Assembly: GCA_964016885.1 (NCBI GenBank)
Contig: OZ024742.1
Location: 232,934,001 to 232,998,000 of the forward strand
Direction: 5' to 3'
DNA length: 64,000 bases
Source: Eledone cirrhosa
Taxonomy: Eukaryota
Made by a program: the position numbers and the translations under genes. Shown here in pieces: positions 5,339 through 16,714 of the stretch. Positions within the stretch are counted from its first letter, which is position 1. Every line of letters starts with the position of its first letter. The notes under the pieces were generated by a model. That model was given only the letters and a program-made list of their open reading frames with translations. It had not been told where the DNA came from and ran no database searches.

Positions 5339-5626
5339 TAATATGTTACTGGTTTTTTAATGATAATTCAATGTAACAAAGGAAAAAGGATGGTTATAGG
5401 AATAAGGTTTGTTTCATAATTGTGTTGTTTCAGTTTTAATTTCACTACTTCACACATAGGCAAATGTTTTTTTTTTACTATAGGGTCAGAGTGGAATGTG
5501 GTATTATGGAAACTGTACGGAAGCACCTCTTATGTCTCTCTCTCTCTAGTTTATATATATATATATATATATATATATATATATATATATATATATATAT
5601 ATATATATATATATATATATATATAT

Positions 5627-6192
5627 AATAGAATGAAACGAAATTTCATTTCTCACTCTTAGTACGGCTGTTACTTAAATATAAGTATGTATACGTACAT
5701 ACATATATGTATACAGACGTACAGTAGTATGTATATATATACATACATGCACACATATATATATGCACGTATCGGTTTACCGAACACTTATGATAATGCT
5801 CGGTTTGCTTGTTTGTAAACAAACAAACAGCTCGAATTACGCCGTACAGTGTTTAGGCAACCACGTCACCTTTTTGTTCAAAACTGACACAGGAACGATG
5901 TACTAGTTTCAAGCTTATTAGCTATCGTCAGCATCGTATACCTTCCTACCAGATGGTTGAACGTCTGAAAGTATATACTTTCCTTATGCATATTAACGGC
6001 TGAGCAGCCTAATTTGCATATCGAGTGAGTTCAGTTGGCCGGGCACACCGAAAACGATAAATGGAATAGAATGAAACGAAATTTTATTTCTCACTCTTAG
6101 TACGGTACTTACTTAAATGTAAGTATGTATGTATGTATACGTACATACATATATGTATACAGACGTACAGTAGTATGTATATATATACATAC
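5627..6192 (-). mobile_element. Non-coding hammerhead-bearing module with 438 bp period (retrozyme/pLTR-like)
   Basis: About 120 bp direct repeat at 5627 and 6065 flanking a unique core that contains a hammerhead; abuts (TA)n. Confidence 0.7.
5896..5936 (-). ncRNA. Minimal type I hammerhead ribozyme
   Basis: cgaug CUGACGA uagcuaauaagcuu GAAAC UA GUA caucg; 5 bp stem I, palindromic stem III. Confidence 0.8.
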
Positions 6193-6212
6193 AAAAATAT
6201 TTAAAGAATATT

Positions 6213-6378
6213 AGTCCAGCCCCCTTTTTTGGAACACTTCAAAAGGCATGCTTGTTGGGAACAGCAAGAACCCTCCGATACGTCCTGAATATCTGAGGCT
6301 GCAGGTAGTGGCTTGATGTTCATTTGAACAAACTTTCCAGTTAAATAACATCGATGACTGAGACTCCAAGAATAATGT
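6213..6378 (+). mobile_element. R4/Dong-like LINE 3' end
   Basis: TLQKACLLGTARTLRYVLNI* then 3' UTR; related sequence at 33650-33735. Confidence 0.65.
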
Positions 6379-7084
6379 TTTCTTTATTAACCACAAAGGT
6401 TGACACAAAGTTTAACATTAAGGACAGCACAGGGTGGTACAAATTGGCGTTTCTGTGTGTAATATCAAATATATAAAACAAAAACAAAGGATGTAACAAA
6501 AAAAAAATGAAACAAAGGAAAATTCCCCAATAAGGGGACACACACACACCACCAGGGGTTACTCGTGGAGAAAGCCCATTAATACTAATAATAATAGGTT
6601 TAAATCGAAGTTGTACCGCAGTATAGCAGATACCAATCGAATTGTTTGAGGCAGTCACAAAGCACTCAATGGAGTGAAAAGTTAATAGATAAAAATGTAT
6701 TAACAAAAGTTCAGAGTAGACACAAAGTTAAGAAAGTGTGAGACCAAGAAAAGCGATGAAATGCATGTGGCCATAGTTATACCACAACAACGATAAATAG
6801 AAACACGTCGAAAACACATACACACATGTATATATATATATATATATATATATATATATATATATATATATATATATATATATATATATATATATATATA
6901 TATATATATATATATATATATATATATATATATAAGGATTAGAATACTGGAGCGTGTTGGAGTCAAACACCCTCTTCGTATTATAGAAATGACTGTAAAA
7001 GGTATAGCTCAATGCAGTTAAACAGAGCCAAAAAATTAAGAGAGTAAAACAAAGAATCCTTTAATACATCAAAAGTTTTTATTA

Positions 7085-7122
7085 GCCGACAATGTTTCGT
7101 CCTATTAAGGACTCATCAGAGC
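7085..7122 (-). ncRNA. Minimal type I hammerhead ribozyme
   Basis: gcu CUGAUGA GUCC uuaaua GGAC GAAAC auu GUC ggc. Confidence 0.88.
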
Positions 7123-9528
7123 AATCAAAACAACAAGAGGTAATATCGGCAGATACAAGCCAGAAACTCTGAAGAATATGGAGTGTACATACACTAATGT
7201 CTTACAAAAATATATGATAATAAAAATGAAAATAAAAATAAAAATAATAAAAATATATAATAAGAATAACTAAGGATGTAGATAACATTAAGAACCATAT
7301 TACAAATATAGTCCAAAGCAACTAACCTAAATCTAAACACATTTGGTTATATAGAGCAGGAATTATATATAACACAATATAATACATTATAATAATAATA
7401 TACTTTTACCAACATTAAAATTACAAATTAAAAATCAAAAGGTACAATATATACATGTATATATGTGCGCGCACACACACACACACACACACACACACAC
7501 ACACACACACACACACACACACACACACACACACACACACACATATATAACAACACACACATCTATGTTCCACTACACAAAATTAAGCCCTATTAGAAGT
7601 TTGAATATTAAAAATAAGCATGATAAGAGTGAAAATAATACTAATACATCTACCCAATATACATGAGGCAATAATATGATATAATTACAAGAAACACATA
7701 TAACAAATAATAAACAACAAAATTATATAATTCAATATAATATAATAAAATAGATAATCCCCGGTTAATTTACAGAAACAATATAGATGTCACAATAAAA
7801 TACAATGATAATACGTTAACAATGTACTAACATTTACCATAAACAATATATACAAATCGATTCATACTGGGTTACAGAATAAATGAGGAAAAATAAATTA
7901 TATAATATATAATACTCAAAAAAACACTATAATGGTACAGGGAAAAATTATGATGTTACAGAAAAAATATACAGACATCTAACATGATATGTAAAGTCTA
8001 AATATCATAATGTTACATATAATGAACAGTAAGTAATAAGGATCAATATTACAATATTACAAAAATCCAGACATCTTACAGGATATATAAAGTTTAAATA
8101 TCATAATGTTACATATAATGAACAGTAAGTAATAAGGATCAATATTACAATACAATATAATATAATATATTATAAATTGGCATAAAATATATAAATACTT
8201 ATAATTACAAGGTTAGTAGACAGACATATGTGGATGAGTGAGCGAAACCAGACAGTGAATAGTAAATAGAATATAGAATAAAATAAATAAATACAATCAA
8301 CCGGAAATTACAAAACAAAAGCAAATATATACACACTTAGGCCTCGCGTGCATTTAAGAAATTAGGTAAACACTAAGGAAAACAATCTTTTTAATTGACT
8401 CCAAACCCTATTTGATAAATTAATATTAAAAATATCGAACCCGTCCAATAAGGTAGTATAATATTAGCTGTAGTTTAAGTCATTAAAGTATATAAACTTT
8501 AATGTATCGTTACAAATGTTTACAAAAAGGAATGAAAATTTTATACTATCATATACGCAACGATATCTAAAAAACTGACTTAAGTAGAATTAAGGTAGGC
8601 TAATGGGGACAGAATTGACGAAATATATGGAGGGTGCGATAATGGCTATATCCGACTTAGAAGGACAGATAAGTCTAACTGAGGGGTTACTAATAAAATC
8701 AACCTTATGGTCCTTAAGTGTGAATCTCGGTTCTCGAGGGTAATATGGCTGGGTATACTTATCGAGTCCGAGGTCAGAGACTATTCTAAGGCCCTCACTG
8801 TTGATGTGGTTCAAATTCTCAAGCGTAGTTTTTTTATAGTTTCTATATAACTCTTTATTATAACGTATTTATTATAACGTATTATCATTGTATTTTATTG
8901 TGACATCTATATTGTTTCTGTAAATTAACCGGGGATTATCTATTTTATTATATTATATTGAATTATATAATTTTGTTGTTTATTATTTGTTATATGTGTT
9001 TCTTGTAATTATATCATATTATTGCCTCATGTATATTGGGTAGATGTATTAGTATTATTTTCACTCTTATCATGCTTATTTTTAATATTCAAACTTCTAA
9101 TAGGGCTTAATTTTGTGTAGTGGAACATAGATGTGTGTGTTGTTATATATGTGTGTGTGTGTGTGTGTGTGTGTGTGTGTGCGCACATATATACATGTAT
9201 ATATTGTACCTTTTGATTTTTAATTTGTAATTTTAATGTTGGTAAAAGTATATTATTATTATAATGTATTATATTGTGTTATATATAATTCCTGCTCTAT
9301 ATAACCAAATTTGTTTAGATTTAGGTTAGTTGCTTTGGACTATATTTGTAATATGGTTCTTAATGTTATCTACATCCTTAGTTATTCTTATTATATATTT
9401 TTATTATTTTTATTTTTATTTTCATTTTTATTATTATATATTTTTGTAAGACATTAGTGTATGTACACTCCATATTCTTCAGAGTTTCTGGCTTGTATCT
9501 GCCGATATTACCTCTTGTTGTTTTGATT

Positions 9529-9566
9529 GCCCTGATGAGTCCTTAATAGGACGAAACATTGTCGGC
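9529..9566 (+). ncRNA. Minimal type I hammerhead ribozyme
   Basis: gcc CUGAUGA GUCC uuaaua GGAC GAAAC auu GUC ggc; fully canonical core. Confidence 0.92.
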
Positions 9567-15078: not shown

Positions 15079-15334
15079 TATCTAATGTTTCTTCTCTCTT
15101 CATAATGTACTATATATATATATATATATATATATATATATATATATATATATATATATATATATAATTAAAGGTTAAACAAGGTTCAATGAATAAATCA
15201 ATGAATAAAGTTTAACAATAGATTAGAAGCACTCCACAGTGAGGATTTCCGGAGTTATTAATATTAATTCAAAATATTCATGGCATGACTGAATTTTAAC
15301 CATCAACATAGTCAAGGTATGTCAAGCATCAACT

Positions 15335-15400
15335 TATTTTATCTGATGAGGACGTACTGCTGAAATAGCTCAGTACCTCTGAAATATGTATAATAAAATA
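15335..15400 (+). ncRNA. Type I hammerhead ribozyme (AUA site)
   Basis: uauuuuau CUGAUGA ggacguacug...caguaccucu GAAAU augu AUA auaaaaua. Confidence 0.8.
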
Positions 15401-15553
15401 TAATTGATCACATGAATGTCTATATTTGTTAATATTTTTAATTAATATATATTGGCCTCGGCCGGATGGCTGAAACAGGTAAAAGAGTATATATATATAT
15501 ATATATATATATATATATATATAAGATCAAAAGATGGTTAAATGAGTTCCATG

Positions 15554-15624
15554 TATTTTATTATGCGCATTTCAAAAACAAATATCATCATGCAATAACA
15601 TTTGTGTTTTCATCAGATAAAATA
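15554..15624 (-). ncRNA. Type I hammerhead ribozyme (left palindrome arm)
   Basis: Reverse-complement copy of 15739-15809. Confidence 0.8.
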
Positions 15625-15738
15625 GGAGGACATGATATGAAGGTTAAAAAACACTTGTGGATAGTGCAGTTTTAAATCAACATTTCATTAAAACTGCACT
15701 ATCCACAAGTGTTTTTTAACCTTCATATCATGTCCTCC

Positions 15739-15809
15739 TATTTTATCTGATGAAAACACAAATGTTATTGCATGATGATATTTGTTTTTGAAATGCGCAT
15801 AATAAAATA
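15739..15809 (+). ncRNA. Type I hammerhead ribozyme (right palindrome arm)
   Basis: uauuuuau CUGAUGA aaacacaaauguuau...augauauuuguuuuu GAAAU gcgc AUA auaaaaua. Confidence 0.82.
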
Positions 15810-16714
15810 CATGGAACTCATTTAACCATCTTTTGATCTTATATATTATGTATACTCCAGTCCTACAAACTGTAGAGCGGGTGATGTATTGTTTCCTTGA
15901 GCAAGACACTTTATTTCACATTGCTTCAGTTTACTCAGCTGTAGAAATGAGATGATAGGACTGGGGTCCCTATCATTCCACTGCAAAGTGATCGTGTAGG
16001 TGCCACGGCAAAAAAAGACCCAGCCCACACTGTAAAGTGGACGTGTAGGCGCCACGGTAAAAAAGCACCCAGCTTTCACTGTAAATGAGGTTGGTGTTAG
16101 GAAGGGCATCCAGCTGTAGAAATCAAGCCAGAATCAGTTCCCGTCCCACCCTTGCAAGCAGGGAAAAGCGGACGTAAAAATGATGATGATGATGATGAAT
16201 ATATATATATATACATTATGTATGAGCGAGACTCAGTCTCCCGACCATTCCCGCATCAAATGGAACAAAACCGTCTAACCCATGCTAGCGTGGAAGATAG
16301 ACGTTAAACGACGATGACTATGATGGTATATACACATATATGTATCTCTCTCTCTATATATAAATATATATATATACACACACACACATATATATATATA
16401 TATATATATATATACACACATACACATATATAGACACATACACATGCACACAATGTATAGCTTGTATTTTTACTCTCAACTTGAACAAACACTTCCTAGT
16501 CACTCTTGCCATCAGAAATGCAGTGAACCAGTGACTGGCCCATTGAAAACCTGTAACCAACAATTCTGGATTTCTATCACAAATATTGACAACTAAAAAA
16601 AATTATTTCACAATTTCCTTTTTTGGTGTCTTCTGCATTCTGTCAGCTGGCACTATGAGGCGATCTAACACCTGACCAGTGAGATGTTAAACATTTGTCG
16701 TTTACATTCAGTAC

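Follow-up and report, generated by a model that had tools for sequence, protein, structure and literature searches.

Endonuclease-positive (EN+) Penelope-like elements (PLEs), among them those of the Hydra clade, have been described as preferring (TA)n for insertion, carrying hammerhead ribozymes (HHRs) near the 3′ end and leaving inverted, 5′-truncated copies (Craig 2021, PMC8557442). Minimal PLE HHRs (PMC4209133) have a U3-A8 core, a bulged A9.1 and a palindromic helix III, occur as opposite-strand pairs 100-700 bp apart and fall into many divergent families per genome. Metazoan retrozymes lacking long terminal repeats (LTRs) consist of non-coding monomers in tandem, low in GC, each with a single type I HHR and self-paired as a circle, and their descent from PLEs as PLE-moved derivatives is a published hypothesis (PMC7229834; 10.64898/2026.07.22.740005; further related literature: PMC6155905, PMC7761336, PMC6962438). 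Here we describe a segment (positions 5552-15846) of a 64,000-nucleotide stretch of the 3.0-Gb genome of Eledone cirrhosa (contig OZ024742.1, 232,934,001-232,998,000), hereafter the window, which is very probably a nest of 11 independent retroinsertions of such elements into (TA)n microsatellites. Element types already known have produced the nest as a by-product, and a pile-up of this kind is itself known; what is new is the scale, an HHR variant with a long helix II, and retrozymes that share the PLE insertion signature.

Type I HHRs were searched for on both strands with a descriptor that required a CUGANGA or U3-A8 core, GAAA, NUH and three helices with helix I open, tolerated a mismatch at the helix II base, and was counted at scores of at least 9. 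A sequence-only reading of the window had proposed 13 HHRs of about 10 types in this segment and one more in the other 54 kb. All 13 were found within a few bases of the positions given there, they form ten families (A-J, Table 1), and the descriptor reports a single motif (C3 at 52912, +) in the remainder. Ten of the 13 have the type I core and reach the threshold; three have an intact core with weak helices, namely a 2-bp helix II closed by U.U (11921), an irregular helix II base (13423) and a helix I of 2 bp (14445). Among close genomic copies, which were picked by likeness so that their agreement is no proof of selection, both core halves are preserved in 12 of 14 for the 11921 family and in 13 of 14 for the 13423 family. 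Block-wise dinucleotide shuffling of the segment (150 shuffles) gave 0.08 motifs on average and never more than 2. Families B (7119/9532), E (12210/15073) and J (15616/15747) are present twice. Since the B and J pairs are the arms of single inverted repeats, 98-100% alike, the 13 motifs amount to 11 insertions; the second copy of E is an independent insertion, ~90% identical to the first, with a compensatory change in helix I between the two. The Rfam model Hammerhead_1, built on short canonical motifs, matched two of the 13 (31.7 and 27.8 bits, under the gathering score of 34). A U.U pair at the helix II base and a U3-A8 core were considered as signs of decay and rejected, both being family-wide and published.

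The sequence-only reading took the region for a (TA)n landing pad in which PLEs of many families gather together with non-coding ribozyme modules, an interpretation supported by the TA ends, the family parents and the co-clustering given below. TA runs were present where it had placed them; its statement that most modules are delimited by them has exceptions in module C, which abuts a long interspersed nuclear element (LINE) fragment with the next TA run 1142 nt beyond, and in the J motif at 15747, 398 nt from the next one. The background sample consisted of 40 evenly spaced 10-kb stretches, 35 of them from the four largest contigs. It holds 73 HHRs (3-11 in eight shuffled sets), distributed over 22 stretches, two of which are tandem arrays, and 66 of the 73 have a homologue in another locus. 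Enrichment beside (TA)n, which the earlier reading had named as a check, was evident in this sample: with the two arrays excluded, a run of (TA)5 or longer lies within 250 nt downstream of the cut in 29 of 30 HHRs scoring at least 12, against 23% of random positions, these motifs not being fully independent of one another. Undirected TA distance over all 73 is weakly enriched because the two arrays dominate it, which leaves the directional, array-free test as the one to rely on. Family ends adjoin TA in 24/24 copies of J, 14/15 of D and 14/16 of F.

By their motifs and domain order, modules B, D, F and J are 3′ ends of coding Hydra-clade PLEs. The parents of B are full 4.84-kb units lying between two identical HHRs (loci L115 and L116), with open reading frames (ORFs) of 915 and 916 amino acids that encode a reverse transcriptase (RT) followed by a C-terminal GIY-YIG endonuclease (EN); the RT piece of module B is 100% identical to amino acids 166-229 of this ORF, and the inverted architecture of the module is repeated in L117-L119. 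The B parent has the motifs RWRA and ADKTK, in a region that the partial ORFs of D, F and J do not cover. A CxCx5C linker, followed by CxxC and CxH around a conserved E and N, with no CCHH, is found in the parents of B, J and D (the last two ORFs being partial). In the F parent (L203), RT precedes GIY-YIG as in B, but the frame is shifted; CxxC and CxH are present, the third linker cysteine is replaced in the single copy read, and EN matches lie upstream in 9 of 14 loci. In L159 the HHR of D follows the stop codon of a Hydra ORF at a distance of 165 nt, and a Hydra EN lies about 920 nt upstream of J in L132, L133, L170 and L171. Published Hydra-clade PLEs share with these elements the C-terminal GIY-YIG without CCHH, RW(K/R), DKT, CxCx5C, CxxC and CxH, as well as (TA)n insertion and a 3′ HHR (100-200 nt from the 3′ end in those published), the last two of which recur in the parents of all four families; many of their HHRs have a U.U or U.C helix II closure, as do families A and D (PMC8557442). 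Unlike the elements treated there, which are generally under 3 kb, those of E. cirrhosa have units of 4.0-4.8 kb, are young (parents 97-98% alike) and are very numerous. The likeness of one ORF to Hydra-1_Obim, and to the alignment of PMC8557442, was judged by eye. A protein search with the Hydra ORF returned 316 relatives of about 700 amino acids, whose names were uninformative and did not settle the clade.

Module C appears to be a Neptune/Nematis-type PLE, known here from its 3′ end and not split between the two clades. It matches Pfam GIY-YIG (E 5e-4), is 60% identical to the 881-amino-acid ORF of L091, and has a 3′ untranslated region (UTR) common to family copies. Together with L091-L094 it shows the CX4CXXC linker (of the CX2-5CXXC class) and CCHH EN of Neptune/Nematis EN+ PLEs, whose DKG, 3′ HHR and microsatellite ends are likewise shared. 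Modules C and H fit the published minimal HHRs directly, and the U3-A8 core, bulged A9.1, palindromic helix III, opposite-strand pairs and multiplicity of families described for these all recur here (PMC4209133). Full-length Neptune/Nematis-type PLEs at L091-L094 (ORFs of 881 and 923 amino acids) have, about 430-650 nt after the stop in the 3′ UTR, an HHR-like motif with CNGUUGA in place of CUGANGA (positions 4 and 6 changed) and compensatory helix II in two families; this is a possible natural core variant below the descriptor's reach. A further PLE EN type was seen at L168 (2599-3054, -) and L045; an HHR family particular to it lies 209 nt downstream.

Families A, E and G look like non-coding, retrozyme-like tandem monomers of 445-592 bp. 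The monomers of A (446 bp) and E (592 bp) have a GC content of 0.37-0.39 and a longest stop-free frame of 64-75 amino acids, and as circles they are strongly self-paired (minimum free energy z of -6.8 and -4.7 against 30 shuffles). No linked PLE ORF was seen for A (0/14 loci), E (0/39 hits) or G (0/14 loci). No copy of A reaches beyond the module's limits in 14 loci, and tandem copies occur in L180; many exact matches of E lie in 591-bp tandems, in arrays of up to 5 units; G was seen as partial tandems only (period ~537 bp). In the one extra locus looked at for H (L206), both copies are TA-flanked and no PLE ORF is present. A, E, G and probably H are most likely mobilised by a PLE enzyme, since they have the same HHR build, the TA ends and the inverted or partial-tandem structure. 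The circles studied in the retrozyme literature measure 170-400 nt, whereas the monomers here are longer and known from DNA alone; insertion into (TA)n with head-to-head inversions is a PLE signature not described in the parts of that literature available, and the U3-A8 core of E also differs from the published retrozymes (PMC7229834; 10.64898/2026.07.22.740005). Alternatively, the non-coding modules could be satellite-like remnants of PLE pseudo-LTRs, amplified as DNA by unequal crossing-over. Long homogeneous arrays (17 × 310 bp, 10 × 556 bp) would suit such a process, and local tandem amplification has been proposed (10.64898/2026.07.22.740005), but copies are dispersed in their thousands, their 3′ ends are fixed at TA, and head-to-head inversions and strand-switching arrays occur among them, all as for PLE insertions, which makes this alternative unlikely. 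The two arrays (L052, G000:C3:55.0 Mb, with a strand switch mid-array; L057, G000:C3:255.0 Mb) are non-coding and self-paired as circles, and the 310-bp family was found again on contig 1.

We envisage the nest of retroinsertions as having arisen in the following way. EN+ PLEs, mostly of the Hydra clade, would use the RT with its C-terminal GIY-YIG to nick (TA)n and prime reverse transcription, as is established for the clade. Each RNA carries a type I HHR 40-290 nt from its 3′ end, copies ending 38-286 nt past the cut, and because of this position even heavily 5′-truncated copies keep the ribozyme; head-to-head pairs are frequent among the genomic copies. TA left on both sides of every insertion would offer fresh targets, and such a feedback may be what makes families pile up; their co-clustering itself is observed (below). 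Short non-coding monomers (A, E, G and probably H) would use the same enzyme. The HHR would work for the element and not for the host. Where copies stand in tandem, the palindromic helix III strands of two units may pair as a dimer, and the unit RNA so released may be closed into a circle and go through more than one round of copying. A template that is circular or uncut could explain why copies end past the cut and comprise 1.2-1.4 units or multimers. The lone copies in the nest would then be mostly leftovers.

The structure of the long-helix-II variant was examined in 20 motifs (I, J, F, 52912 and relatives). In these, 97.5% of 360 cells pair, the core is invariant except at N7, and two-sided changes are seen at 13 of 18 pairs, a level reached by none of 500 shuffles (slid registers pair at 34-58%); covariation among copies, whose absence would have spoken against the sequence-only reading, is thus present. 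The two-sided changes carry more weight than the pairing percentage because the descriptor selected for pairing. The fourth position of helix II is an invariant C facing a pyrimidine, a feature of 6 of 16 long-helix families for which a tertiary role may be suggested. Family I belongs to this superfamily, and the variant is present in about 84,000 copies. Several of the elements combine the long helix II and its fixed fourth-position C-pyrimidine mismatch with an 8-nt palindromic helix III, which none of the 27 Hydra HHR rows compared from PMC8557442 shows. Of 24 recurrent families, 14 have a self-complementary helix III, a form that the descriptor favours. In monomer folds, the second pair of helix III has P<=0.09 in 10 of 10 motifs, and self-duplexes of helix III reach -12.9 (E) and -10.5 (J) kcal/mol; weak monomers with stable self-duplexes fit the dimer mechanism described for PLE (PMC4209133) and newt hammerheads.

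Families also co-cluster. Around loci anchored on one family (loci overlapping the window and duplicates excluded), other families contribute 104 HHRs in 423 kb (2.46/10 kb), compared with 46 in 380 kb of background (1.21; p 2e-5). Of 80 J-type superfamily events in the first 7.3 Mb of contig 1, 18 lie within 5 kb of a U.U-type event, against 5.8 at random (maximum 17 in 2000). The nest itself holds 7 descriptor families in 10.3 kb, with at most 4 in any of the 40 background stretches, and 5-6 pattern events, with at most 4 in any of about 960 windows from the first 9.9 Mb of contig 1. The earlier reading would have fallen had density here equalled the background; it is well above it. The locus is nonetheless no singular structure and belongs to the upper tail of a genome-wide load of 1.2-1.8 HHRs per 10 kb. 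A count model expects about 13-631 such windows genome-wide, and the cluster is an unusually dense nest, in about the top 0.1% of windows, and not a unique locus.

Several observations weigh against a nest built by TA-targeted PLE insertion. TA-run and HHR counts per 10 kb are uncorrelated (rho 0.12, p 0.47; 73 background hits). TA adjacency is lower in A (10/30), the short end of B (11/32) and G (12/22), where many copies continue into a tail or tandem unit. No parent was found for H or for I, nor any sequence homology of A, E, G or H to a coding PLE, and the use of a PLE enzyme by these four is argued from shared architecture. The covariation set was picked by a descriptor that demands pairing, its sequences are related, and the structure was drawn from the same set. 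The missing correlation would suit a tolerant, gene-poor patch that simply retains insertions, with little added by TA-to-TA nesting, as would the lack of any host gene seen in the window and the presence of a LINE fragment and short interspersed nuclear elements (SINEs) in the nest. Such a patch is nevertheless improbable, as the other 54 kb of the window are equally repeat-rich with one HHR, TA lies specifically 3′ of the HHRs, and families with no relation to one another cluster together over distances of 1-5 kb.

The sequence-only reading further expected a read-through transcript of either strand to be cut at several sites, which is doubtful. Apart from the weak, mostly palindromic helix III, no family has two same-strand copies in the nest, and the inverted pairs form hairpins (the pair at 15517-15846 is 96% paired), so that efficient multi-site cutting is not expected. 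Some read-through cutting could occur via G, whose helix III is stable, or by pairing between transcripts. Self-cleavage of the modules is a prediction from sequence. A cassette of several ribozymes, kept by selection on the host to cut up a long transcript, would account for the extreme density of families and pattern events, but the modules are young repeat copies, 97-100% identical to copies dispersed elsewhere in the genome, and lie on mixed strands; tens to hundreds of equally dense windows are expected by the count model, and the folds predicted for monomers lack helix III. We consider a cassette extremely unlikely. Head-to-head PLE ends (15517-15846, 7035-9616), common genome-wide, correspond to long, near-perfect RNA hairpins, which if transcribed may be substrates for A-to-I editing or Dicer.

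Long TA tracts between modules also invite the thought that the assembly misjoined unrelated repeats there, and the sequencing-run contigs on 9300-13600 are too short to bridge modules and bear neither on the joins nor on expression; a search of sequencing runs listed no RNA run containing the sequence. The same module-TA-module texture recurs, however, in the background sample and at the loci of each family searched, and the interior is coherent, with a 16-bp target duplication around the SINE in module C and inverted architectures of a known kind; misjoins are very unlikely to be the explanation.

Exact, non-overlapping pattern searches of the genome returned 7,860 matches for family E and 83,630 for the superfamily of I and J, both patterns covering only the 3′ half of the motif, and 82,830 for a short helix II closed by U.U (including A and D), with 0, 0 and 130 for the reversed controls. 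The 5′ core was present upstream of 68/69 (E) and 46/48 (I/J) such 3′-half matches in the loci examined. The three patterns, which account for 43 of the 73 background hits, give 174,320 HHR motifs, and the genome probably contains 2-4e5, or ~60-100 per Mb (bootstrap 1.1-5.3e5 without arrays). An extrapolation to 5.5e5 was dropped because the background sample overshoots, with 44 pattern matches where about 23 were expected, 17 of them from one array. For the nine families searched, first-look candidates numbered 771-3827 each and are not copy numbers (family E: 1462 candidates).

By comparison with these at least 174,320 motifs, PMC4209133 gives about 2,000-9,000 per genome, and the largest animal count found was 126,247, in the axolotl (PMC7229834). 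The giant squid genome paper gives 235 Rfam hits, the main text of a curated octopus repeat annotation, as far as available, has 0 mentions of ribozyme or hammerhead (PMC13282606), and the 35 species listed in the available text of 10.64898/2026.07.22.740005 include insects and a coral as the only invertebrates. No cephalopod HHR census and no such nest was found in a literature search that had most subscription journals and Repbase outside its coverage, and a record is not established. The suggestion of the sequence-only reading that so diverse a cluster was undescribed in cephalopods has to be amended in one respect: Hydra-1_Obim of Octopus bimaculoides, with (TA)n preference and an HHR, is already listed in PMC8557442. 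A far-reaching interpretation, possible though doubtful, would make this the most hammerhead-rich animal genome on record. Its retrozymes would form circular RNAs and owe their mobility to Hydra PLEs that are still active and work in trans, and a new variant of the HHR (long helix II, fixed C-pyrimidine mismatch docking on helix I, palindromic helix III), at ~84,000 copies, would be abundant enough for cutting intronic and read-through RNA by pairing between transcripts.

With 11 of its 13 motifs missed by Rfam, the nest points to an unannotated layer of the genome. Two questions become testable in one genome, namely what PLEs gain from the HHR and by which element animal retrozymes are mobilised. 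A suitable pair of enzyme and passenger is offered by the young, intact Hydra ORFs and the non-coding monomers, which have an insertion signature in common, and the recurrent HHR families, at least 24 in number, provide a natural covariation library for the long-helix-II variant.

Table 1. Modules, hammerhead motifs and other repeats of the window (positions in the window; Pos. 3, C3 or position 3 of the motif; Score, descriptor score relative to the threshold; Cand., first-look genomic candidates)
Feature	Positions	Strand	HHR	Pos. 3	Cut after	Score	Cand.	Remarks
(TA)n target tracts	5552-5627, 6829-6934, ~9614-9633, ~11706-11725, ~11949-11966, 12369-12412, ~13613-13635, ~13798-13838, 14564-14754, 15111-15166, 15488-15523							
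Family A	5628-6193	-	5895-5937	5931	5901	>=9	2778	Non-coding, retrozyme-like; ~445-bp monomer plus partial second unit (~1.27 units); U.U at helix II base; palindromic helix III
Family B	6935-8874	-	7076-7131 (B1)	7119	7088	>=9		Young Hydra-clade PLE 3′ part, internally deleted, joined to RT piece 8638-8858
Family B, inverted arm	8875-9616	+	9520-9575 (B2)	9532	9563	>=9		5′-truncated copy of same PLE 3′ end; same insertion as B1
Family C	10434-11550	-	10770-10809	10805	10774	>=9		Neptune/Nematis-type PLE 3′ end (GIY-YIG end and 3′ UTR), SINE-interrupted; U3-A8 core, bulged base after A9
Family D	11785-11932	-	11884-11928	11921	11891	<9	3827	Hydra-clade PLE 3′ end
Family E, copy 1	11964-12368	+	12203-12296	12210	12289	>=9	1462	Non-coding, 592-bp monomer; inverted tail piece 11964-12045; U3-A8 core
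Family F	12413-13003	-	12458-12513	12508	12463	>=9	1613	Hydra-clade PLE 3′ end (4.05-kb unit)
Family G	13130-13618	-	13356-13431	13423	13364	<9	963	Non-coding, ~537-bp monomer, partial tandems; short inverted end 13570-13618; stable helix III
Family H	13920-14563	+	14443-14474	14445	14472	<9	1880	~645-bp element, no ORF seen; minimal HHR, weakest motif
Family E, copy 2	14746-15110	-	14984-15079	15073	14990	>=9		Short inverted end 15078-15110
Family I	15167-15452	+	15335-15400	15343	15392	>=9		Short 3′ end; inverted piece 15167-15281
Family J	15524-15877	-/+	15554-15624 (-), 15739-15809 (+)	15616 (-), 15747 (+)		>=9	771	Head-to-head pair of Hydra-clade PLE 3′ ends, 159-bp perfect arms
Fourteenth HHR		+	52902-52971	52912				Long-helix-II type, C.C mismatch shared; next 2.4 kb downstream free of TA runs
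SINE in 3′ UTR of module C	about 10561-10756							Target duplication 10552-10567, 10752-10767; presumably octopus-type SINE, very abundant in the genome
SINE	11722-11788							As preceding row
LINE fragments	9655-10433, 44749-46770, 51447-52517							Presumably RTE-type; RT/endonuclease Pfam matches in last two
RT fragment, another non-LTR type	386-1570	+						GC-rich; RVT_1 E 2e-4 (with next row)
RT fragment, same type	19445-19870	-						
LTR retrotransposon	58833-60365	+						Broken pol-like frames
Minisatellites	42670-43374, 39939-40316, 24370-24517, 50228-50718							Units of 48, 41, 40 and 245 bp, respectively

Among the other repeats of the window, Rfam matches to miRNAs were rejected as low-complexity artefacts. 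The minisatellite with 48-bp units is related to the 3′ end of the LINE at 9770-9882.

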